From: an uncultured Bacteriovoracaceae bacterium
GTDB lineage: Bacteria; Bdellovibrionota; Bacteriovoracia; Bacteriovoracales; Bacteriovoracaceae
DNA: 64,000 nucleotides
Reading direction: 5' to 3'
NCBI GenBank assembly: GCA_964012805.1
Contig: CAXGUD010000001.1
Location: 208,731-272,730, forward strand
Shown here: positions 14,449-48,058 of the stretch, piece after piece
Numbering within the stretch: position 1 is the stretch's first letter
How the letters are laid out: every line of letters starts with the position of its first letter
Made by a program: the position numbers and the translations under genes
The notes under the pieces: model-generated
Told to the model about the DNA's origin: nothing
Database searches by the model: none
Seen by the model: only the letters and a program-made list of their open reading frames with translations

Positions 14449-15264
14449 TTAGATTTTTTTAAAAGCAAGATTCTTATACCTAATCATTTTACTTTTTTGA
14501 GTCCACTCAGCCACCTGAGTTAAAAGATAACCCATCTTACTTTTTGAAAAAACTTTTTTAACAATTGGGTAAGTTGGTAAAGTGCTTTCATTAATATCTT
14601 CAATTTCTTCAATTTCAAAATAATTTTCTTTGGCAAATGACTCATAAGCTTCACAGGTGCACAATTGTATATTTCCATAAAAGGGAATACCTGATTTTTT
14701 TAGAGACATATTAAATAAGTTTGGAAAATCAAAAGAAAGAACAAAATCTGATAAAACCAATTGCCCTCCACCTTTTAAAACTCTGTAGGCTTCACTAAAA
14801 AAATGGTTTCGGTCTGGGAAGTGAAAAATACATTCCACTGCCAAAACAATATCAAAAGAATTGTCATTAAAAGGCAATTTGCAAGCATCCCCTTGAATAA
14901 AAGAGATGTCATTACCGTTTTTTTGAAATACCTTTTGTTTGGCCCGATCAATCTGTCTTTGATCAATATTAACGCCAACAATTTTAAGATCATGAAACTC
15001 CTCATTTATAAGAGAAATCGTTCCACCAAAACCGCACCCTACTTCCAGAACTGCTTGTCCATCAACAATATTTGCTAATGCCAAAAGTTTTTTAGAGAGG
15101 GCCTTAGAAGCATTTTGAAAATCTTCTATCGATCCATTAGCTGAATTAGGATTTTCCCAATAACCCCAGTGAATATGTTCACCAAATACCTGTTCCATTT
15201 CCTTATTTTGTTTTTCAATCTCTGACAAAATAAGATCAAAATAGGGAAGGTTAAACCTTTTAAT
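14449..15264 (-). CDS. class I SAM-dependent methyltransferase (sterol/tocopherol MT-like, HWGYW type)
   Basis: 'HIHWGYW', 'VLEVGCGFGG', 'GDACKLPF', 'AVECIFHF'. Proposed ATT start at 15264 behind AAGGAGG (ORF track: TTG 15228). Confidence 0.85.
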   Translation of the reverse strand: MKRFNLPYFDLILSEIEKQNKEMEQVFGEHIHWGYWENPNSANGSIEDFQNASKALSKKLLALANIVDGQAVLEVGCGFGGTISLINEEFHDLKIVGVNIDQRQIDRAKQKVFQKNGNDISFIQGDACKLPFNDNSFDIVLAVECIFHFPDRNHFFSEAYRVLKGGGQLVLSDFVLSFDFPNLFNMSLKKSGIPFYGNIQLCTCEAYESFAKENYFEIEEIEDINESTLPTYPIVKKVFSKSKMGYLLTQVAEWTQKSKMIRYKNLAFKKI

Positions 15265-15431
15265 ATTTGCCTCCTTAAAAATTATTTAGCTTTTATTATC
15301 CTACAACCTTAACGACAAAGCTTTAAATTTTAAAAAAAGCCCTACTAAATAGTTCAAAGAAACTCCTTAACATTTAATAGTTAAATTATATTTCCGATAT
15401 TAAGAGGAAGTAATTTTGATAACGAGGACAT

Positions 15432-16511
15432 ATGGCCCTTAAAAAGAAACCTGCACCTCAAGGTAAATCCCCGGTTCCAACAAAGCCTGGGCTAAAAAGG
15501 TACTCTCAAGGGGATCTTCTATTTAGGGAAGGAGAATCAGCTAATGCTCTTTATATAATTAAGGAAGGGCAAATCCGTCTCTTTAGACCTAAAGGAAAAG
15601 GATTTATTGAAATAGCTATTTTAAGAAAAGGTGAAGTGATTGGCGAAATGGCCTATTTTGATACCGCTAATAAAAGAAGAAGTTGTTCGGCTTCTGCTCT
15701 TACAACACTTCAAATTATAGAAATACCCTTCGATTCACTAGACAAGGCCCTCAAAGGCTTGAATCCCTGGTTTAAAACGATTGTTATTACTTTGGCAGAC
15801 AGGCTCAGAAAAACAAATAATCAATTAAAAGAGCTCGAGTCAAACTCAGTTGGTTATGCAACCAAGGGAAAAGCTGCTCAATACACCTTTTTTACTAATA
15901 CAGATATCGTTAAAGGTTTAAGTCTTCTTTTTACAACGTTTAAGACTTTCGGAAACTTTAATAAGGGTGAATATAAATTAAATAAAAGCACCCTTAAAAT
16001 TCAAATGAATGAAATGAATTCATACCCTGAAATTAAGTTAGAAGAACTTGTGAGAGTTCTTAAGGAGCTTAAATATGTGGATGAAAAAAAAGCAGAAAAT
16101 GGAGAGGCAATTCTCCTGGCCTATAAGATGACTCAAATACATGAAGCAGTTGTCTTCTTTAACAAAGAAAGAAGAACTGAAGACAGCAAAAAATTAAAGA
16201 TACCAGAAAAAACTGAACAACTCCTTTCTGCTGTTATGGCACAACTTAAAACTGTTGCTATTAACGCAAAAGGAAAAGCAGAAGTTAACCTATCTAAAAT
16301 TCTAGACAAGTTTAAACAAAAGAAAATTCCAGTATTCGTTGAAGACTTTGCACCAGCAGTCGAGCAAGGCTTCGCAGAGGAAATTTACTTCGACAACTCT
16401 AGTCAAATGATTTCAATCATTAATGTCAAATACCTTGAAAGCGCAATGCCTGCCATTCAAATGAGAAACTTTTTTGATAAAGTAAACCGTGAAAAAGCTG
16501 ATAACAGCTAA
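15432..16511 (+). CDS. cyclic nucleotide-binding (Crp/Fnr-like) domain protein
   Basis: 'LFREGESANALYIIKEGQI', 'GEVIGEMAYF', 'RRSCSASA'. Confidence 0.85.
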   Translation: MALKKKPAPQGKSPVPTKPGLKRYSQGDLLFREGESANALYIIKEGQIRLFRPKGKGFIEIAILRKGEVIGEMAYFDTANKRRSCSASALTTLQIIEIPFDSLDKALKGLNPWFKTIVITLADRLRKTNNQLKELESNSVGYATKGKAAQYTFFTNTDIVKGLSLLFTTFKTFGNFNKGEYKLNKSTLKIQMNEMNSYPEIKLEELVRVLKELKYVDEKKAENGEAILLAYKMTQIHEAVVFFNKERRTEDSKKLKIPEKTEQLLSAVMAQLKTVAINAKGKAEVNLSKILDKFKQKKIPVFVEDFAPAVEQGFAEEIYFDNSSQMISIINVKYLESAMPAIQMRNFFDKVNREKADNS

Positions 16512-16568
16512 TTGTCCAATCCTCTAAAATTCGATAATATCCCGTTTCAACAATGAAAGGGGTCTAGA

Positions 16569-18458
16569 GTGATGGCACGAATTGAAGAACTTCAAACACT
16601 CATTTTGAAACACAAAGCGTTATACTACCAGGGTATTCCAACTATTTCAGATACCGAATATGATGCCCTTGAAGAAGAACTAAAAAAACTAGATCCAGAT
16701 AATTTTACTCTTAAACTTGTTGGGACAAGTCTAAAATCTGGAAAAAAAATAAAGCATGCAACAAAGATGCTCTCTTTAGATAAAACTTATAGCTCTGATG
16801 ATCTACAAAAGTGGATCCAAGAAAGAAAAGTCATTAGCACCCCAAAAATAGATGGAATGTCAGGCTCGCTTATTTACGATAATGGACAACTCACAATAGC
16901 CAAAACAAGAGGCGATGGACAATTTGGAGAAGACATCTTTGATAAAGTTTCTTGGATGAATTCTGTACCAAAAACTATAAATGATAAGAGGACCCTCGAA
17001 ATTAGAGGAGAAATATTTTGCTACGAAAAAGATTTTTCCATTCTTAAAGACAAAATGACTCTTTTAGGACTTGATGCTCCAACCTCTCAAAGAAATATAG
17101 TCGCTGGATTAATTTCAAGGAAAGAAAACATCCCTTTATGCCAACACTTATCCTTTAAGGCCTTCGAACTTTTAGGAAAAGAGATTGACTTAAGCTCAGA
17201 GTCTGAGAAAGTAGATTACCTAAGGAAGCTTGGTTTTGATCTCCCCCCCTTTATTCTTCACAAATCCTTTGAAACAGTCTCAGAAGAAATTGACAGAATA
17301 AAAGTGTTTATGAATGAAGGTGATTATCTTATTGATGGTCTTGTTTTTTCTTACGACAATCTAGAGCTTCATAAAACTCTTGGAGAAACCTCACATCACC
17401 CTCGTTATAAAATGGCCTTTAAGTTTCAAGGAGAAGTAAAAACAGCGACAATTCAAGAAGTAAAATGGAATGTCTCAAGAAATGGTATTCTTACTCCTGT
17501 AGCAAGAATAAACCCAACCGAACTTTCGGGTGCACAGATTACAAATGTCACACTTCATAATTATGGAGTTGTCAGAGACTCTAACCTTAAAGAAGGGGAT
17601 CAAATAAAAATTACCCGAAGTGGTGAAGTTATTCCAAAGTTTTTATCTGTTATCAAATCCACTGATGGCAAAATGAAGCTTCCAGACTCATGTCCAAGTT
17701 GTAAAGGTTCTGTTGACATTGTAGATATTAGAATTCTTTGTAAAAGCTCCCAATGTCCTGCTCAAATCAAAGAAAGTATTCTTAACTTCATCCAAAAAAT
17801 CAGTATTGATGACCTAAGCTCTAAAAGGCTTGAAGAGATGATGAAGATTGGATTGGTTAAAACGATACCAGATCTTTACCGCTTAAGTTTTGATGACCTA
17901 ATGAAACTAGACAAAACGAAAGAAAAGATGGCCAATAAACTTCTGGAAAATATTTCAAAAACAAAAAGTGAAACAGACCTTACAACTTTTCTTTCTTCCT
18001 TAGGACTTAATGGTGGTGCTTATAATAAATGTGAGAAAATCGTCAAAGCTGGTTATGACTCTATACCTAAGTTAAAAAAAATGACTCTAGATAATTTATG
18101 TTCCATTGATGGCTTTGCAGAAAAGTCGTCTAAAGACCTCCTCACATCCTTAAAAAACAAGTTTACTATAATTGATGAGCTTACTACCCTTGGCCTAAAA
18201 CCAATTTTACCCACTGAACAGACATCAACACTAAGCGGAAAGGCCATTTGTATTACTGGTACTTTATCTGAAAAAAGAAGCGTTATAGAAGATAAATTAA
18301 GGCAAAGTGGGATGAAAATTGTAAAATCAGTTTCTAAGAATACAGATTATCTTCTAACTAATGACCCCAATTCCTCTTCAAGTAAATGCAAAAAGGCAAT
18401 TGAGTTAGGCCTTTCTATAATAAGCGAAACTGAACTAGAAAAGTTACTTAAAAGCTAA
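16569..18458 (+). CDS. ligA: NAD-dependent DNA ligase
   Basis: 'ISDTEYD', 'MLSLDK', 'KIDG', 'TRGDG', 'EIRGE', 'HHPRYKMAFKF', 'RSGEVIP', Zn finger CPSC..C..C, C-terminal BRCT. Confidence 0.97.
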   Translation: MMARIEELQTLILKHKALYYQGIPTISDTEYDALEEELKKLDPDNFTLKLVGTSLKSGKKIKHATKMLSLDKTYSSDDLQKWIQERKVISTPKIDGMSGSLIYDNGQLTIAKTRGDGQFGEDIFDKVSWMNSVPKTINDKRTLEIRGEIFCYEKDFSILKDKMTLLGLDAPTSQRNIVAGLISRKENIPLCQHLSFKAFELLGKEIDLSSESEKVDYLRKLGFDLPPFILHKSFETVSEEIDRIKVFMNEGDYLIDGLVFSYDNLELHKTLGETSHHPRYKMAFKFQGEVKTATIQEVKWNVSRNGILTPVARINPTELSGAQITNVTLHNYGVVRDSNLKEGDQIKITRSGEVIPKFLSVIKSTDGKMKLPDSCPSCKGSVDIVDIRILCKSSQCPAQIKESILNFIQKISIDDLSSKRLEEMMKIGLVKTIPDLYRLSFDDLMKLDKTKEKMANKLLENISKTKSETDLTTFLSSLGLNGGAYNKCEKIVKAGYDSIPKLKKMTLDNLCSIDGFAEKSSKDLLTSLKNKFTIIDELTTLGLKPILPTEQTSTLSGKAICITGTLSEKRSVIEDKLRQSGMKIVKSVSKNTDYLLTNDPNSSSSKCKKAIELGLSIISETELEKLLKS

Positions 18459-18506
18459 TAAGCCTTTTTTTCCTCTTTCATTATAGAGAGCCTAATTGGA
18501 TAAAAA

Positions 18507-19208
18507 ATGTTTAAACATTTTCTTAAAAAATTTTTCCAACAGTTTGTTTATCTTTTCATTAGACTTGTCTACAGCACTTACGAGTTGAAATTTACAGGGT
18601 TGGATAACCTTAAAAAGGCAGAGGCAGCTTCTCCAAAGACTGGAGTAATCTTTGTTTTATGGCATGAGCACCTTATATCAGGAATAATTGGGTTAAGAAA
18701 CTTCCAACCGATAGCAATTGTCAGCTCATCTAAAGATGGAGACCTTATCGCCCACACAATGGAAAGAATGGGCTTTGGTATGGCCAGGGGAAGCTCAACT
18801 CGTGGAGGGGCACAAGCTCTTTTAAAAGCTGTAAAAGGGCTAAAAAATAAGCGCCCAATTGTTCTAACTGTTGATGGGCCAAAAGGCCCTAGGAATATTT
18901 CAAAACCTGGTGCTCTTTCTTTATCCAAAAAAACACAAGCCCCCATAATTCCTCTTACTCCTATTACAAAAGAACCATTCATTTTTAAAAATTCCTGGGA
19001 TCAATGTAAGCTTCCCCTTCCCTTTTCTAAAATCATTGTAAGGCTGGGTGATATTATTGAACCTCCCCAGACATCTAATTCAGAAGAAGCTCAAAGCTAT
19101 CAGAATCAACTCGACCACTTTCTTTTCATAAATGAAGAAAAGGCAAAAAATGATCTAAAAACGTGGAAAAAGTTAAAAAATTTTAAGGTCCCCGTGAAAC
19201 ATCTTTAA
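18507..19208 (+). CDS. DUF374/lysophospholipid acyltransferase-family protein
   Basis: 'LWHE', 'SKDGD', 'RGSSTRGG', 'TVDGPKGP', 'SWD...LPLPF'. Confidence 0.88.
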   Translation: MFKHFLKKFFQQFVYLFIRLVYSTYELKFTGLDNLKKAEAASPKTGVIFVLWHEHLISGIIGLRNFQPIAIVSSSKDGDLIAHTMERMGFGMARGSSTRGGAQALLKAVKGLKNKRPIVLTVDGPKGPRNISKPGALSLSKKTQAPIIPLTPITKEPFIFKNSWDQCKLPLPFSKIIVRLGDIIEPPQTSNSEEAQSYQNQLDHFLFINEEKAKNDLKTWKKLKNFKVPVKHL

Positions 19209-19360
19209 AAAATATGAAAAGGCCTTCACATAAATTTAGATTTTTCACTTTTTACATCAAGTTAACTTTAAGGTTCAAAAATTGACATAAACATAACTTT
19301 ACTAAATTTTACGAGAGACCTACCATTTTCCTAAATAAAATCTTTTTAACCGGAGGAAAC

Positions 19361-20041
19361 ATGAAAAATCTTAAGAAAGTAATATTATTGATCTGTGTTC
19401 TTGGAATGAGCAATGCTTATTCAATTGGTAAGAAAAACAAAATCCAGGATGCTAGAAACATGATGCAAGAAGGAACTTTAAGCGCTGATGAGACGTGCTT
19501 AGATGAATACCTAACTGCACAAAGCCAATACAAAAGAATGCTAACGCTTGGCGTTGTTGGAAGAGGTGCTGTCGGTGCAGCTTCAGGAACTGTAGCTGCT
19601 GGTAGCATTGTAGGAGGGGCTGCCCTTTCTTATGGTGCTGGTGCTGCCGCTGCTGCTAGTGCAGCTGCTTCAGTAGCTGCTGCTGGTGCCGTCACAGGTG
19701 CAGTTGTTGTTGCTCCTGCAGTTGTTGTTTACGGAACTGTCTCTGCCACCAAGCTTATTCAGACAAATTATATGATTAAAGTTTTAAGAGATGCTTACAA
19801 AGGAAGAGGCTCTTCTCTCAATAAGTTCACCAAGAAATTCTTGAGAAGAAATAAAGAAGCCAGAGGTTATATGACAAGAGAGGAAATGAGACAAATCGTT
19901 TTAGACCTAGATCAAGCTGGTGCTTTGTGTGACGGTTCAATGAAAAAGCAAAGAAGAATTCATAAGCTTCGTGTTCCTAGACAAAGACAAAAATTGGCTT
20001 TGAAAAAAGACATTTACAAGTACATCAAGAATACGCTCTAG
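19361..20041 (+). CDS. secreted hypothetical protein with long Gly/Ala/Val hydrophobic segment
   Basis: GGAGG RBS, signal peptide, about 65-aa G/A/V stretch, basic C-terminus, two Cys in the mature region. Confidence 0.7.
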   Translation: MKNLKKVILLICVLGMSNAYSIGKKNKIQDARNMMQEGTLSADETCLDEYLTAQSQYKRMLTLGVVGRGAVGAASGTVAAGSIVGGAALSYGAGAAAAASAAASVAAAGAVTGAVVVAPAVVVYGTVSATKLIQTNYMIKVLRDAYKGRGSSLNKFTKKFLRRNKEARGYMTREEMRQIVLDLDQAGALCDGSMKKQRRIHKLRVPRQRQKLALKKDIYKYIKNTL

Positions 20042-20066
20042 AATAATCCTTTATATTTAGAGTACT

Positions 20067-20094
20067 GAGGGGGGAGGTATCCCCCCTTTTTTTT
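20067..20094 (+). terminator. intrinsic terminator
   Basis: GAGGGGGGA-GGTA-TCCCCCC followed by T8. Confidence 0.85.
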
Positions 20095-20234
20095 AAAAAA
20101 GACACATCGCATAAACACCCCCATAGGCTAAATATTTTTCAAAGGTCATTTAAACCTTTGAAAAAAGCAGAAAAACATGGTCTATCTCAGATAATGCTGT
20201 TACCTAAGACTCTTTTCAATAAAAATAAATTTTA

Positions 20235-21914
20235 TTGAGTCAGCAATTGCTTCCAAGGAGCCCCTTTTTGAAATTTTCAGACCTCCCCCTCGACAAAAAT
20301 ATTATAAAAGCTTTAGACGAAAAGAACTTTTCTGAACTCTTTGAAATCCAGGAAAAATCAATTCCTGTGCTCTTGGAAAATGAAACTGACTTCGTTGGAC
20401 AGGCCCAGACTGGTACTGGAAAAACAGCAGCTTTTGGCCTTCCCCTCTTATCTAAAATCGGCGAAAGCTTCAACCATATTCAAGGGCTTATCTTAGCACC
20501 GACTAGGGAGTTAGCAACACAAATCCAAGATGAACTGAAGGAATTTTCTAAATACACAAAAATTAGAACTTCAGTTGTCTACGGTGGAACTCCTATTAGA
20601 GACCAAATAAAAGACTTAAAAAGAAAAAAGCCTCAAATACTGGTTGGAACACCTGGAAGGGTCCTAGACCTCATTGACAGAGGCTTTATTAACCTTGGAA
20701 AAACACAATACGCGGTTTGTGACGAATGTGATGAAATGCTTAACAGAGGTTTCATTGAAGATGTTCAGGAAATTTTGGACCTCTTATCCGGAAATAGAAA
20801 TATTTGGATGTTTTCTGCAACAATGCCAAAACCAGTCCTTAAAGTTGTTCAAGAGTTTTTGAATACACCTCACATGGTTTCCGTTCAAAGAAAATCTGTA
20901 AGTTCACAAAATATTGATCAAGGGTACTATTTAGTTCCTAGAAATAATAAAGTGAAGGCCATTTGTAGCCTATTTGACTCCATGGAAGATTTTTATGGAA
21001 TGATTTTCTGCAGAACAAAAATTGAAGCAAAAATAGTTTCAGAAGAGCTGACTGCTTGGGGCATTCCTTGTAGTTCTCTCCACGGTGATATGGCCCAAGA
21101 CCAGAGAACTCATACCATGAAAAGGTTTAAAAAGAAGGATATCATTCTTTTAGTCTGCACTGATGTTGCGGCAAGAGGAATTGACGTTAACGACCTTACC
21201 CATGTTATCAACTTTGGTCTCCCTCAAGACTTTGAATCCTACGTTCATAGAATTGGAAGAACCGGGCGGGCTGGAAATACAGGAACAGCTTTGACCTTTA
21301 TTTCCCCCGATGAAAAAGGGCGCCTCTCAAGATTAGAAAAGTTTATTAAAGCACCCATTAAGAGAAAGAGGTTGCCTAAAGTTAGCGACATTAAAAAAGT
21401 TCTTTTAAGAAGAGAATTAATGAAGTTATATGAAAAGAACCAAACGGGGAAAAGCTTCAAAGACAATGAGCTTTATGACTTTTTTAAAGAGGAAACTCAA
21501 AACGAAAAAATGGAAACACTTGTCCAGAAAATGTTTGACTATATTTCTAATAATATTTTTTCAAATTATAATAGTGAAGAAACCCTAGACCTTGCTGACC
21601 ACAAAGTCTCCATGAGAGGGCCTCAAACACGCGGCCAAAGCGAGAGACGACCCATTAATACCAGTGAGGACCATGTTAGGTTTTTCGTGAACTTAGGTAA
21701 GAATGATGGGGTTAATATACAATCTTTTCTAGAGAATATTGCCGGCAGTGCCTCCGTTAAAAGAAAAGAGCTTAAAAATGTCGTCCTAAAGGATGATTTT
21801 TCTTTCCTTGAAGTTCATAAGAGTCATAAAAATAGATTCCTAAAAGGAAAAAAACTCTTTTTTAAAAAGAAGGCCTTAAGGTTTGAAGTGGCCAGAACTC
21901 CTGGCAAAAGATAA
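20235..21914 (+). CDS. DEAD-box RNA helicase (DeaD/CshA-like, DbpA RNA-binding C-terminus)
   Basis: Q motif, 'AQTGTGKT', 'PTRELA', 'TPGR', 'DECD', 'SAT', 'ARGID', 'HRIGRTGR'. Confidence 0.93.
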   Translation: MSQQLLPRSPFLKFSDLPLDKNIIKALDEKNFSELFEIQEKSIPVLLENETDFVGQAQTGTGKTAAFGLPLLSKIGESFNHIQGLILAPTRELATQIQDELKEFSKYTKIRTSVVYGGTPIRDQIKDLKRKKPQILVGTPGRVLDLIDRGFINLGKTQYAVCDECDEMLNRGFIEDVQEILDLLSGNRNIWMFSATMPKPVLKVVQEFLNTPHMVSVQRKSVSSQNIDQGYYLVPRNNKVKAICSLFDSMEDFYGMIFCRTKIEAKIVSEELTAWGIPCSSLHGDMAQDQRTHTMKRFKKKDIILLVCTDVAARGIDVNDLTHVINFGLPQDFESYVHRIGRTGRAGNTGTALTFISPDEKGRLSRLEKFIKAPIKRKRLPKVSDIKKVLLRRELMKLYEKNQTGKSFKDNELYDFFKEETQNEKMETLVQKMFDYISNNIFSNYNSEETLDLADHKVSMRGPQTRGQSERRPINTSEDHVRFFVNLGKNDGVNIQSFLENIAGSASVKRKELKNVVLKDDFSFLEVHKSHKNRFLKGKKLFFKKKALRFEVARTPGKR

Positions 21915-21915
21915 T

Positions 21916-22593
21916 TCAAAATCTATAAAGTAAGTTTGTAAAGAGAGTTGTTTCTTCGTTAAAGAAGTAACGACTCTCTAAAAGACGGTTTGAAATAAAA
22001 GTAAAGTGTTTCTTTAATAACTTCTGATAGAAAACACGGGACCTTCTTCTCGCATAATAATCCTTAAACTCATGATCCCTTATTTGAAAATCCAACTCTG
22101 TATCAGTCGGCACAGTTAAGTAGAGGAACTTCACTCGCATAGAAAGCAAGGGGATGGCCTGCTCTAATTCCTTTGTCGTTAAATATTGCAAAACAGAGTT
22201 GCATAAACCCAAATCATAGCGCCCTTTAGTTTTCTCCAACCATTCCATCATCCCCATGTTTTTTAAAGTTAAGTTTTTTATTCCGTACTTTTTTTTCCAC
22301 GTTGCCATAGTTTCAAAAGCATAGGGAGATGGCTCAACACCACAAACCTTCTTCAAAGCAAGCTTTTTTCTCCCTTCCTTTATCATAGACCCCAATCCAA
22401 AACCTAGATCAACCATAGAGCGGATTTCAATCATTTCTAAGTTAAAAAGAGAGGTTAAATAAGCAAAGTGTTCTTTTACGTTCCCAATACAGTCCATACT
22501 TTCTGGGTCACTATAATTACTGGCCCAATAATCCTTAGGAAAGCCATCTTCTCCAGAAGCTGTTTCACCTTCCCTTGTTCCTACTTTACTCAT
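21916..22593 (-). CDS. class I SAM-dependent methyltransferase
   Basis: 'VDLGFGLG', 'GVEPS', 'CNSVLQY'. Likely ATG 22593 (ORF track: 22719). Confidence 0.75.
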   Translation of the reverse strand: MSKVGTREGETASGEDGFPKDYWASNYSDPESMDCIGNVKEHFAYLTSLFNLEMIEIRSMVDLGFGLGSMIKEGRKKLALKKVCGVEPSPYAFETMATWKKKYGIKNLTLKNMGMMEWLEKTKGRYDLGLCNSVLQYLTTKELEQAIPLLSMRVKFLYLTVPTDTELDFQIRDHEFKDYYARRRSRVFYQKLLKKHFTFISNRLLESRYFFNEETTLFTNLLYRF

Positions 22594-22672
22594 AAAAGAC
22601 CCTTCATGAAAAAATAAGCAGATTTGCTTTTTTGTTTTTACTTTTTCTAGATAGCTTGTTATTGCACCGTAT

Positions 22673-23284
22673 ATGAAATATAAACTTAGAACCCCATCTA
22701 TAATAAGGCTTTTGGCCATTTTTTCAATCCTTCTCTTCTCTTTTCTTCTAACTGAAGGGCTAAAGTCCGAGCTTTCTGAGATTTCTGAGCATCCTAAGAA
22801 TGCTTCGCTTTCCTTTCAAAAAGAGTCCTGTGAAGTTGAACAAATCGGTCATGAAATCATCGTTTATTGCAAACTAAAAGTGCTTTTTAGGGAATCTTCA
22901 AATGGGCCTCTAGAAGAAGAGCTCTACTTAAAAGAAGGTGAAATTGAGGGAAGCGCCACTGGAGATTTTGTTGCGCAAACCATTAGCCCTTTAAGTAACA
23001 AGCCTAACCTTTACCACAATCCCTTTCCTCTACCCCTTAAATTAAAAAATTTAACTGACCAGGTTATGACAATGATCAACTTACAAAGGCCTCACCAAAG
23101 TGGCAGACTAAAATGGGCCATACCAACTACAATACAAGATGAACTTGGGGAGGTTGTTGAGGAAGTTTCAGTCATTCAAGAATTTATTTTGGAAGAAAGC
23201 ATTTTGACCTTAAAAAAGGGAGGGCTTAAACTTATCGAAGTCGACCTAAATAATGTTTCACATCCTATAAATAACCTTCCCTAA
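22673..23284 (+). CDS. hypothetical exported protein
   Basis: 203-aa ORF with N-terminal hydrophobic segment. Confidence 0.55.
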   Translation: MKYKLRTPSIIRLLAIFSILLFSFLLTEGLKSELSEISEHPKNASLSFQKESCEVEQIGHEIIVYCKLKVLFRESSNGPLEEELYLKEGEIEGSATGDFVAQTISPLSNKPNLYHNPFPLPLKLKNLTDQVMTMINLQRPHQSGRLKWAIPTTIQDELGEVVEEVSVIQEFILEESILTLKKGGLKLIEVDLNNVSHPINNLP

Positions 23285-24645: not shown

Positions 24646-24675
24646 TTCGCCCCCTCTAACATAAATATAAAACAT

Positions 24676-26054: not shown

Positions 26055-26059
26055 AATGT

Positions 26060-26854: not shown

Positions 26855-26904
26855 TTTTACTCCTATAAAAGTTATTAATATAAAGGGAAGCTCCCAAAAA
26901 TAAT

Positions 26905-34469: not shown

Positions 34470-34471
34470 TA

Positions 34472-36028: not shown

Positions 36029-36044
36029 CCTTAAAAACTAAGAA

Positions 36045-37211: not shown

Positions 37212-37452
37212 AAAAGCTCCTCATTGAATATTGATAGTGATTAACTGAGTGCATGCCTGTACTCACTTCACTGTCCATGTAACTTAATAAAGATTATTAC
37301 ATTCTGCAGCGTTTCAATACAAACAGGAAGAGTAACTAAATTACCACCTCGTTTGCAAGACCTTTTCGCTCAAGATTCTATTTTTAAGTACATTTATAAA
37401 TTTTCCACCCGATTAGTAAGCCAATCTACTTCTAGATGAACGGAGTAAAATT

Positions 37453-37917: not shown

Positions 37918-37944
37918 GTCCTCCTTACTCCAAAGCTTAGACTA

Positions 37945-38448: not shown

Positions 38449-38583
38449 TAATTTCTCCAAGTTTAAGTTGGAAAAATTATGAGAAGTCCTTTTAACTTTG
38501 GCAAGACCTTGACTTTTAATTTAAAAGGTATTTAAGAAGGTAAAAGTGTTGATTTTTTCTCTAAATTAAGACCTATTTTCCTC

Positions 38584-39822
38584 TTATTTCATCAACTTAC
38601 TTATGAAAAACTCCCTTAACCTATCTCTTTTCAATAAATCCTTAACAATGGCGATTAAGTGTTGATCCTTTTCCCATCTTACATTACCTTTCTCGCAACT
38701 TGCATTGAAGGCTTGGGTTAAATCCCACTGATTTTTGCTTGGAACTAAAGTATCTCCAAATGAAGCAACAAAATAAACATGACTTTCTTTCCTTCTATGG
38801 GCCAAGCTCATTGGCTCATAAGGTAGTGCCCTTTCTAAGGCCTTAAAATAATCCATCCTTGTTCTTAAATTCTCTTTCCTCATTCTGTATGATCGATACA
38901 ATTTGGCCATTGCCTGTTCTGAGTTCGTGAAGAGCTCAGGAAAATTAGCCCCTCCCATTGCCGAAGCTAAAACCTTGATATCATCGTTCAAAACATAAAC
39001 CATTGAGGAAAGGAGACCTCCCAAACTAAAACCAAAAATGCCAATATTGTCCTTGTCAATATCTCTGTATTTTTTTAAATACTGGATCATTCTATGAGTA
39101 TCACCAATAACTCCCGCCATAGATTCTTTAAGCTTTCCAATCTGGTTAAAAGGACTTACGAATTTAACGCCTCCTAACTCCAAAACGGCGACTTGAAAAC
39201 CAAAAGAGGCATACTCGATGGCCATACCAATATCAAAAGGAGAGATCCCGTAAACAGGGGGCATGATGATTAAGACAGGCCTTGGCTTCGTACTCTTTTT
39301 CTTTAATTGATAAAGATAAAACTTGGTAGTTCCCTTTTGACCTTTAGGTTTTTTATAACTTAATCGTACTCTTAGTTTTTTAACACCTTTTATTTCTTTC
39401 ATAACTTTTTTCGTGTTTTCACTTCCGTACCATGAGTCTAATGCCATTTTTTCTGAAACTTTAAAAGACGTTTCAGCAAAACGTTCTGATATATTTTTTG
39501 TGACCTCATATTTTTTCATTTCTTGTTTTATATTTTTCATGGCATTTTTAAAAAGCCTATCTAGCCTACTCATACTTTCAAATGTTTTTGTTTCAATAGT
39601 AAAGTCGCTTTCAGATTTAACCGACCATGGAAGATCAAGTTGTGTCTTTTTAAGATCCTTAATGAGATTTTCAAGATTCCTTCCCTTTATTTTTATTGGT
39701 CTTTTACAAATTGCTTTTTTGGGACACAGTCTGAAGTTCAATTCAGGACAATTTTGGGCAAAGGCCTTTGATGAGAAAAAAATGAACAAAAATACTAGGA
39801 AATATAGGGACAAATTCCTCAT
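38584..39822 (-). CDS. secreted alpha/beta hydrolase
   Basis: Signal peptide; nucleophile elbow 'GFSLGG'; 'DTLVP' Asp and C-terminal 'DQHL' His. Confidence 0.8.
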   Translation of the reverse strand: MRNLSLYFLVFLFIFFSSKAFAQNCPELNFRLCPKKAICKRPIKIKGRNLENLIKDLKKTQLDLPWSVKSESDFTIETKTFESMSRLDRLFKNAMKNIKQEMKKYEVTKNISERFAETSFKVSEKMALDSWYGSENTKKVMKEIKGVKKLRVRLSYKKPKGQKGTTKFYLYQLKKKSTKPRPVLIIMPPVYGISPFDIGMAIEYASFGFQVAVLELGGVKFVSPFNQIGKLKESMAGVIGDTHRMIQYLKKYRDIDKDNIGIFGFSLGGLLSSMVYVLNDDIKVLASAMGGANFPELFTNSEQAMAKLYRSYRMRKENLRTRMDYFKALERALPYEPMSLAHRRKESHVYFVASFGDTLVPSKNQWDLTQAFNASCEKGNVRWEKDQHLIAIVKDLLKRDRLREFFISKLMK

Positions 39823-39989
39823 TTTGATGCTCCTCTAAGAGTAAATCAACCTCTCTATCGGGCCATTTTGGCCAATCCTGAGCCTTCTTTTGAAAGTTTT
39901 TAAAATATTTACCAATGGTGCTAAATTTCCTTGCTAAAAAACAACCTCTATGGTCCTTTACACGCTCTATAAACAACCAAGGGAATAAA

Positions 39990-40253
39990 ATGGATCAAGA
40001 TACAAAAGCACAAGAGCAATATGACCACCTTTCAGATGAGGTAACGGACTTTATCTTAAAAAAAATGGAAGAAGTTCAAACCAGCAATCGTTTTAAAAAT
40101 ATCGATGAAACTGACTTTATGCACAGCCTAATCAGCACAATTGGAATGACACTTTCGTATCATATGGAAGAAGAAGAGATTGCTGATTTTGTTTCTTCTG
40201 TGGCGCTAGAGGGTGCTAGAGAACAGAAAGCCTTCGACTCAGAAGAGTCTTAA
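39990..40253 (+). CDS. small acidic hypothetical protein
   Basis: AAGGGA before ATG 39990. Confidence 0.55.
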   Translation: MDQDTKAQEQYDHLSDEVTDFILKKMEEVQTSNRFKNIDETDFMHSLISTIGMTLSYHMEEEEIADFVSSVALEGAREQKAFDSEES

Positions 40254-40270
40254 TCACTTAATATATAAGC

Positions 40271-41014
40271 TCAGGAGGTGCAGGACCTTAATGGAACAAG
40301 AGTTAAAATATGGTCTTCAATAGACGTACAAAAATAACCTTCAAAAAGGTCTCCCTCCTTAAACACCCCGCCAAGCCCCCTTTTTAACCTAAGAGTAAAG
40401 CTTCTTGTATCGAGGTTTAATTTCACCATCTCAGCATCATAGAAGTAGAAAAAAGTTTTTGCTAAAGGGTACAAGCATTTAAAAAGGGATTCTTTTGCTG
40501 AAAAAACAAGTCCAATAAGATCAGTTTCTTCAAAGCCTTTTGGCAATTCTTTATAGAGTAGGTTATCTGCCCCCGTAAATACCTTATTCTTTATTTTATT
40601 TAAAGAATTTGATCTATTAAGGCATTCTAAATCCAATCCCAAACTAAGAAAATCTTCAACTTTACCGGTACAAGCCATGACCCCTATAGGGCTATGAGTG
40701 ATAGACCCAACAGCTCCTTTTGGCCAAGAAGGCGACCTATCATCATTCATACCAATTCCTGTTTCTTTAAAAATTGGCCGCCTTTCTTCTGGACCGTTCA
40801 TTTTATCTAAGGCCTCTTTTGCACATATTCGGCCTATAACAAACTCGATCTTCCTTTGCTCAGAAAAGTTAGAAAAGCGCTTAGGTTGGAATTTCAAAGG
40901 AACAGACTTCAAATAGCTTGATACCAGATGCCCACTTTTTCCAAAATCGCTTTTTAATTCAAAAGAAGAGAAGGCCAAAGATTTTAAATCAAATAAGTCA
41001 GAGAATAATTCCAT
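40271..41014 (-). CDS. 4'-phosphopantetheinyl transferase (EntD/Sfp type)
   Basis: 'EFVIGRICA', 'WP...GSITHS', 'GLDLE', 'FSAKESLFK'. Confidence 0.9.
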   Translation of the reverse strand: MELFSDLFDLKSLAFSSFELKSDFGKSGHLVSSYLKSVPLKFQPKRFSNFSEQRKIEFVIGRICAKEALDKMNGPEERRPIFKETGIGMNDDRSPSWPKGAVGSITHSPIGVMACTGKVEDFLSLGLDLECLNRSNSLNKIKNKVFTGADNLLYKELPKGFEETDLIGLVFSAKESLFKCLYPLAKTFFYFYDAEMVKLNLDTRSFTLRLKRGLGGVFKEGDLFEGYFCTSIEDHILTLVPLRSCTS

Positions 41015-41216
41015 TTCCTGACAATATTCTAAACGTCAAAAACCGTCTAGCCTTTCATATATAGGAAAGTAATTTTCCCTTTAAGCTATATCGTTTCAAA
41101 CGCCCCAAATGCCTCACAGAACAATATTTGCAAAAAGAACGAAGGTCATAAAATAAAATTTATTGATACCCAAAATAAGAATTTATTTATGATTATTAAA
41201 ATCCGATGAAGTTCTC

Positions 41217-42098
41217 ATGAGAAAATGTATTGATGTTCAAAACCTTTCTTTTAGTTATCTTTCACAAAAAATTCTACACGATTGCTCTTTGACCTTAGAT
41301 AAAGGGAGGTTTTGTGCTTTTATTGGTGAAAATGGTGCTGGAAAATCGACCTTCTTAAAAAATATCGCAGGACTTGAAATCCCGGATCAAGGAAATATTC
41401 AATTTCTAGAAGAAAAACTATCAAACGACTCAATCACTCAAAAGTCAAAGCTGATTTTTATAACTGAAAATCTATCATTCTCTTCACCTCTCACTATAAA
41501 AAAGTTTATTAAGAGTTTTAAAAAGCTCTACCCATCTTGGAATCAGGAAATGTTTGATTCCATCATAAAACAAAGAAGTATTGATCTTGAAAAACGCTTT
41601 AACGATTACTCTAGAGGCCAAAAAATGCAAATACTTTTGGCAAGTTATCTTTCAACAGGACCTAAACTTATTTTAATCGATGAAGTAACAAGCGTCCTTG
41701 ATATTCACGCACAAAAAGACTTTATGAAGATTTTTAACAATCTCGTAAAGGAAGGAAGTACAGTTATTTTAGCAACAAATATTCTATCAGAAGTCGCTCC
41801 CTATGCAACCGACCTCTGCTTTATAGATAGCGGTCAGATTAAGTTCAATGTTCCAGTCAGCGAACTTAAAACAAAATACGTTACTTTAAAAGCTGACCGA
41901 AAAATTGATCTCGACAAAGCAAAGGGAATTGAGCTTATTGAGGAGCGAGAAGACAAATTTTATTATATTGCACTTAAAAAAGACCTTTCTTCTTCCCTCC
42001 AAAATGCTTCCTCTATTGAAACTTATCCTCCATCATTTGAAGATTTGTTCCTTTTCTTTTCAAAAAAAGAAACAAAATCTGGAGGGCTCCATGCTTGA
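41217..42098 (+). CDS. ABC-2 type ATP-binding protein
   Basis: 'GENGAGKST', degenerate signature 'YSRGQ', 'ILIDE'; H-loop appears as 'ATN'. Confidence 0.85.
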   Translation: MRKCIDVQNLSFSYLSQKILHDCSLTLDKGRFCAFIGENGAGKSTFLKNIAGLEIPDQGNIQFLEEKLSNDSITQKSKLIFITENLSFSSPLTIKKFIKSFKKLYPSWNQEMFDSIIKQRSIDLEKRFNDYSRGQKMQILLASYLSTGPKLILIDEVTSVLDIHAQKDFMKIFNNLVKEGSTVILATNILSEVAPYATDLCFIDSGQIKFNVPVSELKTKYVTLKADRKIDLDKAKGIELIEEREDKFYYIALKKDLSSSLQNASSIETYPPSFEDLFLFFSKKETKSGGLHA

Positions 42099-43428
42099 AC
42101 TCCTAAAAATTTATTCTAGAAAATACTTCAAAGATGCTCTTTACGTTAACATCTGTGCTTGGTTTCTCGTATTTTTAACGGCTTACGTAAATCCCAAGAT
42201 TGACAAGAATGAAGTCTCCCTCACTTATTTTTTTTCACTCAATATAATTTTGTTTCTTTTTAGCTACCCTCTTGAGGAGTGCCTTAAGTGGGTTCTCGTT
42301 AGCCCTTTTAAAAAATTAGAAATTTTCTTTTTTAACATCATTTTTCAATTTTTTAAGTTAAGTTTAGGTGGGATCTATTTCTCTTTAAACCTCTTCTTTT
42401 TTGGATTACCCCTATCTGTTGAAAAAAAGAAGGCGACTTTTCAAGAGGATTACTTTTTTAATCAAGCTGTGGATCAAATAATGGACAGCCGGTTCTTTTT
42501 TGGGATTGTCCTTTTTATAATCTTTGTTATTGTTACCTTATTTTCACCTTCACCAAAACTGATTCTGGCCCAGCCTGGTTTTTTAAAATTAAAGTGGAAG
42601 GACTTTATTTTTTACTTAAAAAAGTACCGCTATTTCGTCTTTATTTTTATTTTTGCTTTGCCTGGAATAAAAATGTTAAAAAATTATTGGAATTCTCCAA
42701 TAATTATTTACACACTTGGCTTTACATATTTAACTTTTAATTTCTTTCACTCATATTTTAAAAAGCTTAAATTTTCGTTTATTAAAAAAAAGAAATATTA
42801 CTTTTCTATCATTTTTATTTTTATTGTCCTATTCACATCTTTAAAAATATACTCCAATAATAGAATAGAAAAAGGCTTTATAAATGGTGAGAATTTAGCT
42901 TCTGAAGTTTTATTTCAAAGAAGTTTTTATAGAGGTGACTCTCTTTCACTTCTAAATGAAACACTAGAAGGTGACATCAAATTTAGTACATTTAAAAAGT
43001 TTAAAAATTATCTTATAGAAACTTCTCAAACAACCTCTTTCAAAGTAGAAGAAAAAATAAAAAAAATTTCACTATTAGATTTTTTAAATAAAAAAGAAGA
43101 CCCTCTTTGGGCACTTTACCTGGCAAAAAAATATCAGAAAAATAAAAGCGACAATCAATATTATGAAACACTTAAGGAGTATTTCTTTAAAAATGTTTCA
43201 GCCCACCCCCTTCAATTAAGGTTAACAAAAAAGTTCGCAAAACTTACTTTAAACAAAGTAAACTCAACTAAAGAACTTGAAGAGCATTTAAAGTCTGGAA
43301 ATAAAATAGAGGTCATCTATACTTTTCATATTTTGCGTTTAAAGAAAGATAAAAGTTTTAAAATATTCCTTAAGAAAAATATGCATTATTTTGAAAACTT
43401 TATCCGAGTTAAAAGCTCTATCCTCTAA
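42091..43428 (+). CDS. multi-pass membrane protein, probable permease partner of the ABC ATPase
   Basis: GGAGG before ATG 42091, overlapping the ATPase stop; about 7 TMs followed by a soluble C-terminus. Confidence 0.6.
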   Translation: MLELLKIYSRKYFKDALYVNICAWFLVFLTAYVNPKIDKNEVSLTYFFSLNIILFLFSYPLEECLKWVLVSPFKKLEIFFFNIIFQFFKLSLGGIYFSLNLFFFGLPLSVEKKKATFQEDYFFNQAVDQIMDSRFFFGIVLFIIFVIVTLFSPSPKLILAQPGFLKLKWKDFIFYLKKYRYFVFIFIFALPGIKMLKNYWNSPIIIYTLGFTYLTFNFFHSYFKKLKFSFIKKKKYYFSIIFIFIVLFTSLKIYSNNRIEKGFINGENLASEVLFQRSFYRGDSLSLLNETLEGDIKFSTFKKFKNYLIETSQTTSFKVEEKIKKISLLDFLNKKEDPLWALYLAKKYQKNKSDNQYYETLKEYFFKNVSAHPLQLRLTKKFAKLTLNKVNSTKELEEHLKSGNKIEVIYTFHILRLKKDKSFKIFLKKNMHYFENFIRVKSSIL

Positions 43429-43507
43429 AATTATTAGCCATAATAGATTAAATATTTATAATGGGATGTGGATAATTATATTAATCATCAAAACTCAGGC
43501 GTGACCC

Positions 43508-43759
43508 ATGACCCTTCTTGACCGAAAAGAACTTGTCTATAGACATATAAAGGAAACCGGACAGGATATTGATAAGGAAGATATTGTGGAAACATCACCT
43601 TTATCTTGGTTTTATAATGGCAAGACGTACATTCTTGTCCCCATGGTTCCCAAAGCTGAAGAAGAAAAGATGGACCCCAGAGACTGCCTAATTTCTGAAG
43701 TTGCTGGAAAGGCTCAGGTTAAAAAAGGGAAATCCGGAATTATCATACAGCGTTTATAG
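43508..43759 (+). CDS. hypothetical protein
   Basis: 83-aa ORF filling an intergenic gap. Confidence 0.55.
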   Translation: MTLLDRKELVYRHIKETGQDIDKEDIVETSPLSWFYNGKTYILVPMVPKAEEEKMDPRDCLISEVAGKAQVKKGKSGIIIQRL

Positions 43760-43781
43760 TTTAGAGAAAAAAAGCCCCTAA

Positions 43782-44105
43782 CTAAGACTGACACACTGAA
43801 CAAAATGGTGACTCTGGCTTGGCCATGAGTCTTTTCTCAGAAATTTCCTCTTCGCACTTTAAACAAACCCCGTAGCTATCATCTTTAAATCTTCCTAAAG
43901 CTGCGTCGATTTGTTTTAAGGTTAATAGAGCACGGTTCTTAGACTCCAAAGACATCTGTTGTTGTTGAATAGCATCCATCCTGGATAGCCTTCCTATAGG
44001 ATCGTTTAAATCGACTGGCTTTGAAGACTCTTTGAGACGCTCAAGAAAAGCCTCTGTCTCGCGTCTTTTTTTTATCAATAAACCTTCGTACTTTTTAATG
44101 TCCAA
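43782..44105 (-). CDS. TraR/DksA C4 zinc-finger protein
   Basis: 'IGRLSRMDAIQQQ', 'YGVCLKCEEEISEKRL..KP...CSVC'. Confidence 0.9.
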   Translation of the reverse strand: MDIKKYEGLLIKKRRETEAFLERLKESSKPVDLNDPIGRLSRMDAIQQQQMSLESKNRALLTLKQIDAALGRFKDDSYGVCLKCEEEISEKRLMAKPESPFCSVCQS

Positions 44106-44967
44106 AAGGTACTCCCCGACTTTCTGACAACATTTTATTTTTCAAATAAAAACGGTCAACAATCCATTTTTGAATATCCTTTTCTTCTTCACCCAATCTG
44201 TCCAAAGGAAACCTTTCAACATGAAGCTTCACTCGCTTCACTTTTCCCCTAAAAAGGTCCAAGAAAGAAGGTGCGGCACCCTCGTAAAAAATCGTGACAT
44301 CATAAACAGCTTGGCAATGGCCTTTTAAACCTTGAACTGATGCTGAGAAACCCTTGACTCGAGGTAGGAGGACATGTTGGAGAGGCGGAAGCTTTTTCTT
44401 TTCCGTTATTTTTTTGGTTTTCTTTAATTTATCCTCTCGGAACCTTGTTCCCTCCGGGAACAACATCAACCATATTGGAATATCATGATCGAAGAACTTT
44501 TTAAAAGTGGCCTCAATTTTTTTTTGATCTTTTTGCCAATTTCGCTTGACGAACAGACAATCTAAAAAGGACATCCCCCACCCTATGGCAGGAAGATACT
44601 TAAGGCCATCTTTTACAAACCACTTCATATTTCCTATCCTCTTTGCCTCTTTCGCCAACTTAAACAAAATTGGAATATCACCCCAGCCTTGATGATTAGA
44701 AATTAAAATAACATTTTCCTCTTTAGGCAGGTCATCACCTGTCTGAATTATTTCAACCCCTCCAGCATTTCTCACAAACCACTCGCATCCCCCCCACCAG
44801 AAACCGGCCAAAGCGGTGTTGAGCTGTCTGAACAATTTTTGTGAAAAAGGGTAAAGAAATAAAAAGGCTAAAACCTGAAGACCATTAATTAGAAGAAGAG
44901 GGGTAAAAATAGCAAAAAATATGATAATGGCCTTAAAAAAACTCATAATATCCTTTATCCAATTCAT
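44095..44967 (-). CDS. 1-acylglycerol-3-phosphate acyltransferase family (PlsC/YihG-like)
   Basis: 'NHQGWGD' (HxxxxD), 'FPEGTR', 'VLLPRVKG', 'YDVTI'. Confidence 0.9.
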   Translation of the reverse strand: MNWIKDIMSFFKAIIIFFAIFTPLLLINGLQVLAFLFLYPFSQKLFRQLNTALAGFWWGGCEWFVRNAGGVEIIQTGDDLPKEENVILISNHQGWGDIPILFKLAKEAKRIGNMKWFVKDGLKYLPAIGWGMSFLDCLFVKRNWQKDQKKIEATFKKFFDHDIPIWLMLFPEGTRFREDKLKKTKKITEKKKLPPLQHVLLPRVKGFSASVQGLKGHCQAVYDVTIFYEGAAPSFLDLFRGKVKRVKLHVERFPLDRLGEEEKDIQKWIVDRFYLKNKMLSESRGVPFGH

Positions 44968-45057
44968 TCTCTTCCTCCTTACAAAAATCCCAAGCCATTA
45001 ATTTAATTTTTTTTAAATTTATATAAAAACAAAAAATTTTAAACCTTTATATATGAC

Positions 45058-46908
45058 TTATTGAAGACTTACCGACTCTGAAAGAAAGTCGACAAATAGT
45101 TTGCCATAACGCCTTAATTTAAAATTCCCTACCCCATGAAGGTTTCTCAGATCCTTCATAGTTTGAGGTCTCTTATCTGCCATTTCCATTAATGTTCTAT
45201 CAATGAAAATGTGGTAGGGAGCGACCCCTCTTTCCCTAGAAAGTTTTAGGCGGAAGGCCCTTAGATCATCAAAGAGCTTTTTCTGAAAATCATCTTTAAA
45301 ATCGACCTTTTTCTTATGGGGATCACCATCTATGAATTCTGACCTCTTCTGATCATTTTTGGAATGGCACTTATTTTTTAAAAATACTTTTTGACCTTCT
45401 TTAAGAATTTGAGCACTTTTAGGTGAAAGTGAAAGTGCACCAAAACCTTCACTATCAACCCTTAAATAATTTTCAGCTATCAATTTTCGGAAAAGGGTCT
45501 TCCAGAGAAAAGGACTATTCATTTTTCCTATTCCAAAAACTGATAAGTTCTCATGATTGAACTGCCTTATTTTTTCGTTATTCTCACCTCTTAGCAGAGA
45601 AACAAGGTGATGCACACCAAAAGACTCTCCTGTACGAAAAACAGCACTCAGGGCCATCTTTGACCAGAGGGTCGCATCCACTGACTCTTGAGTTGTCCAG
45701 CAATTATCACAATTTTTACAAGGTCCTTTATAAGGCTCATCAAAGTACTCTAAAAGACTTTGTCTTCTGCACTGGATACTCTCACAGTAAGAAATAAGCT
45801 GATCACACTTTTTTTTCTCAACCAATTTTCTCTCATTATCAGCTTCAGAGTTCTCCATTAACTTCTTAAGGTAAACGACACTATCCAGGCCATAAGTCAT
45901 CCAGGCCTTCGATGGAAGACCATCCCTGCCCGCCCTACCTGTCTCCTGGTAGTAAGCCTCTAAGCTTTTTGGTAAATCCATATGAGCGACGAACCGGACG
46001 TTTGGTTTATCAATTCCCATTCCAAAAGCAACTGTGGCCACCATTATAATTTCTTCTTCTTTTATAAATGTATTTTGGTTTCTTTCTCTTAACTTTTCAT
46101 CTAATCCAGCGTGGTAGGGAAGTGCCTTTAGACCTTTCTCTGTTAACCATAAGGCCAAGTCTTCCACTTTTTTCCGGGACATACAATAGACAATCCCCGA
46201 CTCCCCCTTATTTTCTTTTAAAAAGGCAAGGAGCTGCTCCTTAGGCCTCTTTTTTTCAATGATTTCGTAACTGATATTAGGCCTGTCAAAGCTAGATAAA
46301 AATAGATTCTCTTCAGGTATTTTTAATTTCTCTAAGATTTCCACCCGCGTTTGTTTATCGGCAGTTGCCGTCAGAGCAATCAAAGGGACCTGAGGAAAAT
46401 ACTTCTTAAGAAACCCTAATTGAAGATAGGAAGGTCTAAAGTCATGGCCCCATTCTGAAATACAGTGAGCCTCATCAATTGCAAATAAAGCAATATTAAG
46501 AGTTTTTAAAAAGGAGAAAAAGGGTTTATTTGCCAGTTTTTCAGGAGCCAAATAAAGGAGGTCCAAACGACCTTCCCTCAAAAGCTTCTGAACCTCTAGA
46601 ACTTCATTAAAAGATAACGAGGAATTGAGTGCCCTTGCTCGGACCCCCATTTCATTGAGGTTATCTACCTGGTCTTTCATAAGGGCTATGAGAGGGGAAA
46701 TAATGACTCCAACCCCATCCCTCATAAGAGCAGGAATTTGATAACAGAGGCTTTTTCCAGCACTTGTAGGCATTAAAACGAGGCAATCTTTACCACTGCA
46801 CAAATGAAGAACAATTTTCTCCTGCTGACCACGAAAGGTCTTATGCCCAAAGATGGAATTAAGTAAATGAAGATGGTTAACTTGGCTCATAAGATGGAAA
46901 AATACCAC
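45058..46908 (-). CDS. recQ: ATP-dependent DNA helicase RecQ
   Basis: '[11 protein letters not shown]', '[15 protein letters not shown]', '[10 protein letters not shown]', '[10 protein letters not shown]', RQC Zn site, HRDC; start GTG 46908 or ATG 46890. Confidence 0.96.
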
Positions 46909-46933
46909 CTCACCTCTTCATTGGCCAAAAAAC

Positions 46934-47044
46934 CTATTTTGAAAAAAGAAGGGTCAAGTCATTAGACCAAGATCCCAAATCACCAAAGGCGAGGTTGAAA
47001 AATATAGTCAAAGCAATCAATAAAATAAGGTTCTTCAAAATCAT
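46934..47044 (-). CDS. candidate 36-aa single-TM/secreted small protein
   Basis: MILKNLILLIALTIFFNLAFGDLGSWSNDLTLLFSK; AGG upstream; below the ORF-track cutoff. Confidence 0.35.
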   Translation of the reverse strand: MILKNLILLIALTIFFNLAFGDLGSWSNDLTLLFSK

Positions 47045-47226
47045 TAACCTATAGATAAGTTTTTTAAGGAAAATGATTTAAACAATGAGAAGCACTCTTT
47101 CAAGGGAAAAAGGTAAAAATGCAACAACTTTCAACATAAAATTTAGCTGAAAAATAAGTTACTTCCGACACCATAAAAGAAAGTTGTTAAAGATTTCAAT
47201 GACTTAAGGGCTATTTGCCTTTATCA

Positions 47227-47433
47227 TCACTGATCAATGGAGATAGAAGGAGCTTTATTAAGAAAATCGCAATGGCTTGAGATAAATCTTTTTAGAGCAA
47301 TCACAGCTATGTCGTCTATGCTGTAGTCTGTATTTCTGGCCATTTCCTCAATTTTCTTAACAACATTAGATTCTATTTTAAGTTCAAGAGAAGAAAGCTC
47401 GCCCTGATTATGAATTTGACCTTTGATAAGCAC
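47227..47433 (-). CDS. small protein, possibly ribbon-helix-helix-like
   Basis: 'LELKIESNVVKKIEEMARNTDYSIDDIAVIALKRF' strand-helix-helix pattern. Confidence 0.55.
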   Translation of the reverse strand: MLIKGQIHNQGELSSLELKIESNVVKKIEEMARNTDYSIDDIAVIALKRFISSHCDFLNKAPSISIDQ

Positions 47434-47518
47434 CTCACTTTTTGACTTAAACCAAACTTTATGAATACAATAATTTTCATTTTTTGTCTAATGCTTGCTC
47501 AAATAATGGAGCTCAACT

Positions 47519-48058
47519 ATAAACACGACACAAAATTTAAGCGCCGAAACAATCATAGCAAAACTAAACTTAATACCTCATCCTGAAGGTGGTTGGTACC
47601 GAAGAACTTACCAGTCTGAAGAAGAAATAGGCCTGCCTTATATTGATCGAGGTCAAAACCAAAAGCGTTTTCTCAAAACAGCTATTTATTACCTTCTCTC
47701 AGGAAAAGAAAGGTCTCTTCTTCATAGAATAAAATCAGACGAAATGTGGCATTTTTACTTGGGAGACCCTCTAACAATTGTTGAAATAACTCCTAATGAC
47801 CCCTTAAAAGCTGACGAAGACCACAAGCTTTCTAAGACCATTCTCGGTCACAATCTATTAAATAACGAGACCCCACAATATACGGTCAAAAAGGGCTCTT
47901 GGTTTGGAGGATATTTAAATAATGATTCTGGTTTTTGCCTTGTAGGCTGCACCGTTTCGCCAGGCTTTGACTTTGAGGACTTTGAGATGGCTTCACCTTC
48001 AAAACAGTTCTCAGAGTTCAAAAATCACCCTGTTGTGCAAAGGCTACTCCCTTCCTGA
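47519..48058 (+). CDS. cupin DUF985 (Cupin_5) family protein
   Basis: In-frame upstream extension contains 'LNLIPHPEGGWYRRTY', 'TAIYYLL', 'HRIKSDEMWHFY'; C-terminal 'CTVSPGFDFEDF'. Proposed ATA start at 47519 (ORF track: 47744). Confidence 0.88.
   Translation: MNTTQNLSAETIIAKLNLIPHPEGGWYRRTYQSEEEIGLPYIDRGQNQKRFLKTAIYYLLSGKERSLLHRIKSDEMWHFYLGDPLTIVEITPNDPLKADEDHKLSKTILGHNLLNNETPQYTVKKGSWFGGYLNNDSGFCLVGCTVSPGFDFEDFEMASPSKQFSEFKNHPVVQRLLPS

Follow-up and report, generated by a model that had tools for sequence, protein, structure and literature searches.

Probable AUH start sites in the window

The window is a stretch of 64,000 nucleotides (G000:C1:208731-272730) of the assembly G000, which is 4.47 Mb in size with a GC content of 35%. 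This stretch occurs in marine metagenome runs. The source organism was treated as a marine predator of the Bacteriovoracaceae type, a lifestyle that we presume from its family name. ATT, ATA, and ATC starts are termed AUH here, and ATG, GTG, and TTG starts are termed NTG. Three genes in the window have a Shine-Dalgarno (SD) motif in front of an in-frame AUH codon: a methyltransferase gene (site 1, 15264), a cupin gene (site 2, 47519), and a small gene that may encode a ribbon-helix-helix-like protein (site 3, 47427). The sites are as the original prediction described them and are conserved in G001, a genome of the same genus. G002, G005, G011, G015, and G021 are other genomes of the family.

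Site 1 (14449..15264, minus strand) encodes a class I SAM-dependent methyltransferase of 271 aa (PF08241 and other matches) with an ATT start at 15264-15262. The layout is TAAGGAGG-CAAAT-ATT. The SD (15270..15277), identical in G001, ends 5 nt before the ATT, and an in-frame TAA (15286..15288), also present in G001, lies 8 codons upstream. The first NTG is a TTG 12 codons into the gene, and the first ATG is 22 codons in. Of 2296 homologs, the 120 best were examined, and 113 carried an LPYFD-like N-terminal motif, at a residue offset of 3–9 in 101 of these. The ATT start gives an offset of 5, and the conserved LPYFD N-terminus is located upstream of the first NTG. The start is ATA in G001 with the SD kept, and ATG in G002, one codon further upstream, so that AUH is not conserved there. 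In the public database, the products of site 1 and of five close relatives begin at a Met 22 residues in, which bears out the earlier statement that standard annotation truncates such genes. For the homolog P0002 (89%), the start was called at a Met that precedes the ATT column by six codons, so the exact start of site 1 could differ; G000 has a second ATT, without an SD, at the column of this Met.

Site 2 (47519..48058, plus strand) encodes a Cupin_5 (DUF985) protein of 179 aa with an ATA start at 47519-47521. Its layout is GGAG-CTCAACT-ATA, with the SD (47508..47511) 7 nt before the ATA and an in-frame TAA 5 codons upstream. The Pfam match (PF06172) covers residues 11-158, and the first NTG lies 75 codons in (47744). 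At sites 1 and 2, the motif or domain begins upstream of the first NTG, confirming that the conserved N-terminus cannot be reached from any NTG. Both the ATA and the SD are kept in G001. A C>T variant at 47512, which extends the SD to GGAGT, was seen in two runs and in G001. A sigma-70-like box, TTGACT-18-TACAAT (47442..47471, plus strand), was matched by consensus upstream of the cupin gene. One such box was found and 1.0 was expected in shuffles, so the box was not taken as evidence of function.

Site 3 (47227..47427, minus strand) encodes a protein of 66 aa with an ATC start at 47427-47425 and the layout GAGG-TGCTT-ATC (SD GAGG(TG), 47431..47436). The protein had no Pfam match. Its atlas neighbours at 0.92 were RHH_1 (28% of members) or HicB/Arc (18%/13%), a weak lead to a ribbon-helix-helix-like function. 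In the alignment with a paralog and relatives, the ATC column is ATG in the paralog on contig G000:C9, TTG in G005, and ATC in G001. Two codons before the ATC, the SD itself contains an in-frame GTG; this codon is GTA in G001, so the alternative start would apply to G000 only. Neither site 2 nor site 3 had a match in G002, which is 68% complete. Only 91 bp (47428-47518) separate the divergently oriented AUH genes of sites 2 and 3, and the RHH-like gene facing the cupin gene could form a small regulatory pair with it.

Elsewhere in the window, a non-coding leader (19246-19360) precedes an ATG gene at 19361 and is conserved in G001 and G002. It has a TTGACA-like box and is a possible promoter or regulator site.

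Authenticity of the three sites

Contigs from four runs, not raw reads, were compared with the window; one of these runs shares its study with a possible source. No other letter or indel was found in the independent contigs at site 2 (bridged by 4/4 runs) or site 3 (bridged by 2/4 runs), where G001 has the same codons, and site 1 has AUH in two assemblies. An assembly error is therefore scarcely credible as the origin of the sites, and the same grade applies to a +1 frameshift at site 2 from an out-of-frame ATG at 47506. This ATG overlaps the SD of site 2 and is present in both G000 and G001, but no SD precedes it, and the short reading frame that it opens is not equally long in G000 and G001.

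The AUH codons could also mark decaying or N-terminally shortened genes, in which a dead ATG is followed by translation from the next NTG or by none. The NTG 12 codons into site 1 and the rejected candidate adh_short, which begins at model position 67, fit this explanation. However, the three frames are unbroken, with 80-89% identity to G001, where the SD and its spacing are kept, and the part that would be skipped contains a conserved motif or domain. In the Nramp transporter gene described below, the 33 codons before the first NTG carried 13 synonymous changes and 1 non-synonymous change. We consider decay very unlikely.

The SD and an AUH codon are kept in G001 at 3/3 sites, and the SD spacing falls within the peak for NTG starts. 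Folding of the 5′ regions was no better than in shuffles. The three sites are most likely real AUH starts, neither consensus errors nor pseudogenes; these two of the objections raised with the original prediction found no support in contigs and frames.

Frequency of predicted AUH starts in the genome

A total of 3628 genes were called in G000 with a ribosome-binding-site model trained on NTG starts. These starts were 74% ATG, 10% GTG, and 15% TTG, and TTG/GTG use was similar in relatives. Eight TTG or GTG starts had been quoted for the window; six were supported by the start model, whereas those at 20235 and 49451 were not.

AUH starts were sought with an orphan-SD test, which takes SD motifs that are unexplained by any NTG and precede the first NTG by 6 codons or more. 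For 5-nt SDs, ATT made up 12/77 in-frame triplets and 1/157 out of frame. With 4-nt SDs, 21 of the 59 orphan-SD genes had AUH, that is, 21/3628 genes. AUH occurred behind orphan SDs in 23/116 cases in frame versus 8/208 out of frame (p=5.5e-6). N-terminal codon use alone would predict 10.7 in-frame cases instead of 23 (p=7e-4), an enrichment that weakens to p=0.054 with looser filters. A method-matched rerun in 400-kb batches gave 19/3209 genes, with 21/89 in frame versus 4/158. Raw counts of SD-N(d)-AUH showed no peak of SD distance, whereas ATG showed one, so a pattern search across many genomes would be without power. An estimate of ~120 AUH genes from a prior-free EM over all codons and a fixed-model mixture was discarded as unreliable, since both ranked TTT, TTA, and TTC above AUH.

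About 10 AUH genes were supported by homology: infC, sites 1-3, recX, the Nramp transporter gene, an HTH_3 regulator gene, and three more, two of which have ATG-starting paralogs and one of which is conserved in G001. In recX, the HTH_3 regulator gene, and the Nramp gene, a domain or conserved segment precedes the first NTG. Five further genes are plausible, three with signal-peptide-like N-termini and two encoding CheR-domain proteins. The CheR-domain proteins (L223, G000:C18:57074; L224, G000:C2:139195) are ~1000 aa long and have an apparent ATT behind AAGGAGG. About a third of the 21 pipeline matches looked false (three) or doubtful (five, on C4, C24, C90, C3, and C71). Candidates rejected as AUH starts were scpB (L225), which starts at ATG in G002; a spurious ORF on C28; and adh_short (L231, G000:C64:10214-10738). 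The last is a short-chain dehydrogenase gene without the first 66 model positions and is probably broken or frameshifted.

The orphan-SD rule would catch 33% of starts overall and 57% of those led by an SD. The sensitivity-corrected number of AUH genes would therefore be about 25-55, or 0.6-1.5% of G000 genes. Homology projection gave AUH in 3/617 G000 genes and 1/177 in G001. The median SD strength was -8.0 for 14 AUH genes versus -5.9 for ATG genes, a biased comparison in that the AUH genes were selected by SD and an assumed anti-SD motif was used. Two further genes have a probable CTG start behind GAGG: a DUF309 gene (L232, G000:C36:30796-31323), whose CTG is also conserved in G001, and a gene for an ABHD18-like hydrolase (L226, G000:C1:41963-43084).

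The window held 2 pipeline matches versus 0.36 expected. The probability of this is 0.052 for a single window and ~0.98 for at least one among 70. No match fell in 21 of the 33 full 64-kb tiles and a single match in each of the other 12. Three AUH genes in one window are a local cluster, and the window, which suggested ~5%, overstates the ~1% rate.

Gene callers shorten AUH proteins. Site 1 loses 22 residues, and the N-termini of recX, the Nramp transporter, and several signal-peptide-like proteins would be lost likewise. About 0.05% of annotated starts in model genomes fall outside ATG, GTG, and TTG, according to 10.1101/063800. The present estimate adds to the evidence that AUH starts are several times commoner than this figure from 10.1101/063800.

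Comparison with relatives and outgroups

In sampled DNA, the orphan-SD test gave 6/907 in G001, 1/251 in G002, 1/352 in G005, 1/399 in G021, 0/185 in G011, and 0/172 in G015. The five family genomes other than G000 and G001 totalled 3/1359. The E. coli control gave 1/330, from a spurious-looking ORF, and had little power. The unrelated Ilyobacter megaplasmid (34.6% GC) gave 1/452, a credible case. In Ilyobacter polytropus pILYOP01, a sensor-kinase-like gene (L268:34953-36423) probably starts at an ATA that follows GAGAGGAG; this codon precedes the first NTG by 30 codons and also lies before the start given in the annotation.

The original prediction would require a higher AUH rate than in relatives, and the samples compared for this were small. 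The clade of G000 and G001 had 25/4116 versus 5/2141 in all others, an odds ratio of 2.6 (p=0.052) with groups drawn post hoc and kin that are not independent. G000 by itself gave p=0.11 against the other family genomes and p=0.41 against the outgroups. A clade excess would include recX, the methyltransferase, the Nramp transporter, the HTH regulator, and the two CheR-domain proteins.

The recX gene (L240, G000:C22:15731-16198) begins with ATT in G000 and with ATC in G001, and a stop closely precedes the codon. An in-frame Met was present in 20/20 other family genomes examined (19 of the 46 other matches plus G005). RecX inhibits RecA. In this clade alone, the RecA inhibitor thus seems to have changed to a weak start, which makes recX a clean gene-level test case for start-codon tuning.

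The main rival explanation is a modest relaxation of start discrimination, in the G000/G001 clade or the family, under which AUH would be cheaper and become fixed 2-3 times more often. The clade ratio and recX fit it, as do the ATG of site 1 in G002 and the AUH-to-AUH swaps kept at site 1 and recX. Other comparisons point away from it. Relatives had AUH where G000 had NTG in 3/463 ortholog pairs, and no clear reverse case was seen. Homology projection showed no G000 excess, with 1 credible AUH among 384 genes in five other genomes against the 3/617 in G000. Clean ATG-to-AUH swaps numbered 0 among 496 start pairs of G000 and G001; 30 of these pairs were non-NTG pairings, three of which involved AUH, but there the codon was internal or was followed by an ATG 1-2 codons later. 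We regard modest relaxation as unlikely, though it deserves serious weight. Relatives have AUH starts of their own where the G000 homologs have NTG: L142 (SDR) in G002, L134 and L122 in G005, and L166 (weak) in G021.

Initiation machinery

The IF3 of G000 (L048, G000:C7:75134-75751) aligns with E. coli IF3 over its full length and keeps R25, Q33, Y70, Y75, R99, K110, R131, and R133. R66K is common to 25/26 other phylum loci that cover the position. The C-terminal signature QFRGRE (R129Q) was found in 16/16 family loci (L039-L057), and positions 166 and 168 were altered in 16/16 as well (E166 to M/V/L/A; R168 to N/T/Y/P). The changes at R129, E166, and R168 could be the cause of a relaxed discrimination. 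However, they occur throughout the family and do not set the clade apart, and other families vary at position 129 too. A literature search returned no paper linking IF3 R129 or R168 to start-codon fidelity.

The initiator tRNA has its C1:A72 mismatch and three G-C pairs intact. KsgA, Fmt, IF1, and uS9 (tail QFSKR) are present and intact; KsgA and the uS9 tail act in initiation fidelity. 16S rRNA was not found in the G000 assembly. The infC gene has an SD and AUH in 15/15 family loci and starts at ATC in G000.

The proposal that IF3/initiator discrimination is relaxed in this lineage was not upheld: about 1% of genes start at AUH, the rate is not significantly above that of family relatives (p=0.11), 0/496 swaps were found, and the machinery is intact. 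Of the two components inspected for substitutions, IF3 keeps R25, Q33, Y75, R131, and R133, and the initiator tRNA is intact. AUH codons appear neither to be used by a large share of genes nor to be freely exchanged with ATG.

Proposed mechanism and comparison with known systems

The three sites are probably gene-specific weak starts of the infC/pcnB/ccpN type on a normal apparatus. SD pairing would anchor a normal 30S subunit and place AUU, AUA, or AUC in the P site, where fMet-tRNA would read the codon by third-position wobble. Intact IF3 would still disfavour the complex, so that little full-length protein would be produced. Starts of this kind would account for about 0.6-1.5% of G000 genes and for a few tenths of a percent in relatives. 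In an AT-rich genome, such codons may come about when ATG drifts by one base, and they may be retained in genes for which weak expression does no harm or brings a benefit. We infer from sequence initiation at the AUH codons, the low output, and any regulatory use; a tuning role is plausible.

In E. coli, initiation at AUH reaches 1-2% of the AUG level (10.1101/063800). The AUH of infC is described as a known target of IF3 autoregulation, and infC is well expressed, so low output from AUH is not guaranteed (PMC5499595). Non-AUG starts are hit hardest by ppGpp and poor nutrition, and context matters (PMC5499595). We speculate that a recent gene-by-gene excess of AUH (2-3-fold, ~1% of genes) would form, together with the family's altered IF3 C-terminal surface, an IF3- and ppGpp-sensitive set of genes that could be shut off jointly under starvation, for example in a prey-free attack phase. 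This idea is quite improbable.

A literature search found no paper on start codons in Bacteriovoracaceae. Unlike relaxed-initiation systems, G000 has a canonical initiator tRNA, and ~99% of its genes start at NTG. Mitochondria use AUA and AUU starts. As in the IF3 mutants R25A/Q33A/R66A described in PMC9723500, AUU and AUA appear to be used as starts in G000. In the account given there, joint loss of R25, Q33, and R66 raises AUU initiation ~5-fold (PMC9723500), whereas G000 keeps R25 and Q33 and its R66K is phylum-wide.

The G000 sites resemble the AUU starts of E. coli infC and pcnB (10.1101/063800; PMC5499595) in having an in-frame AUH behind an SD, and at sites 1 and 2 no canonical start gives the full protein. 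Two AUH genes are described as confirmed in E. coli, against ~10 homology-supported and ~25-55 estimated in G000, by different methods that do not allow a like-for-like comparison. Most of the G000 cases are ordinary genes whose conservation is limited to a small clade, unlike infC and pcnB as these sources present them. A further resemblance is to S. aureus infC, ccpN, cvfC1, and citZ (PMC13009471), where AUU or AUA starts with a strong SD in a low-GC genome are missed by annotation. The four S. aureus sites are reported with extended SDs, evidence from Ribo-Ret and reporters, and conservation across genera (PMC13009471). Those of G000 are deduced from sequence and more numerous, with SDs mostly of 4-8 nt and shallow conservation. 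The AUH sites in G000 show no new initiation mechanism and represent a known type of start.
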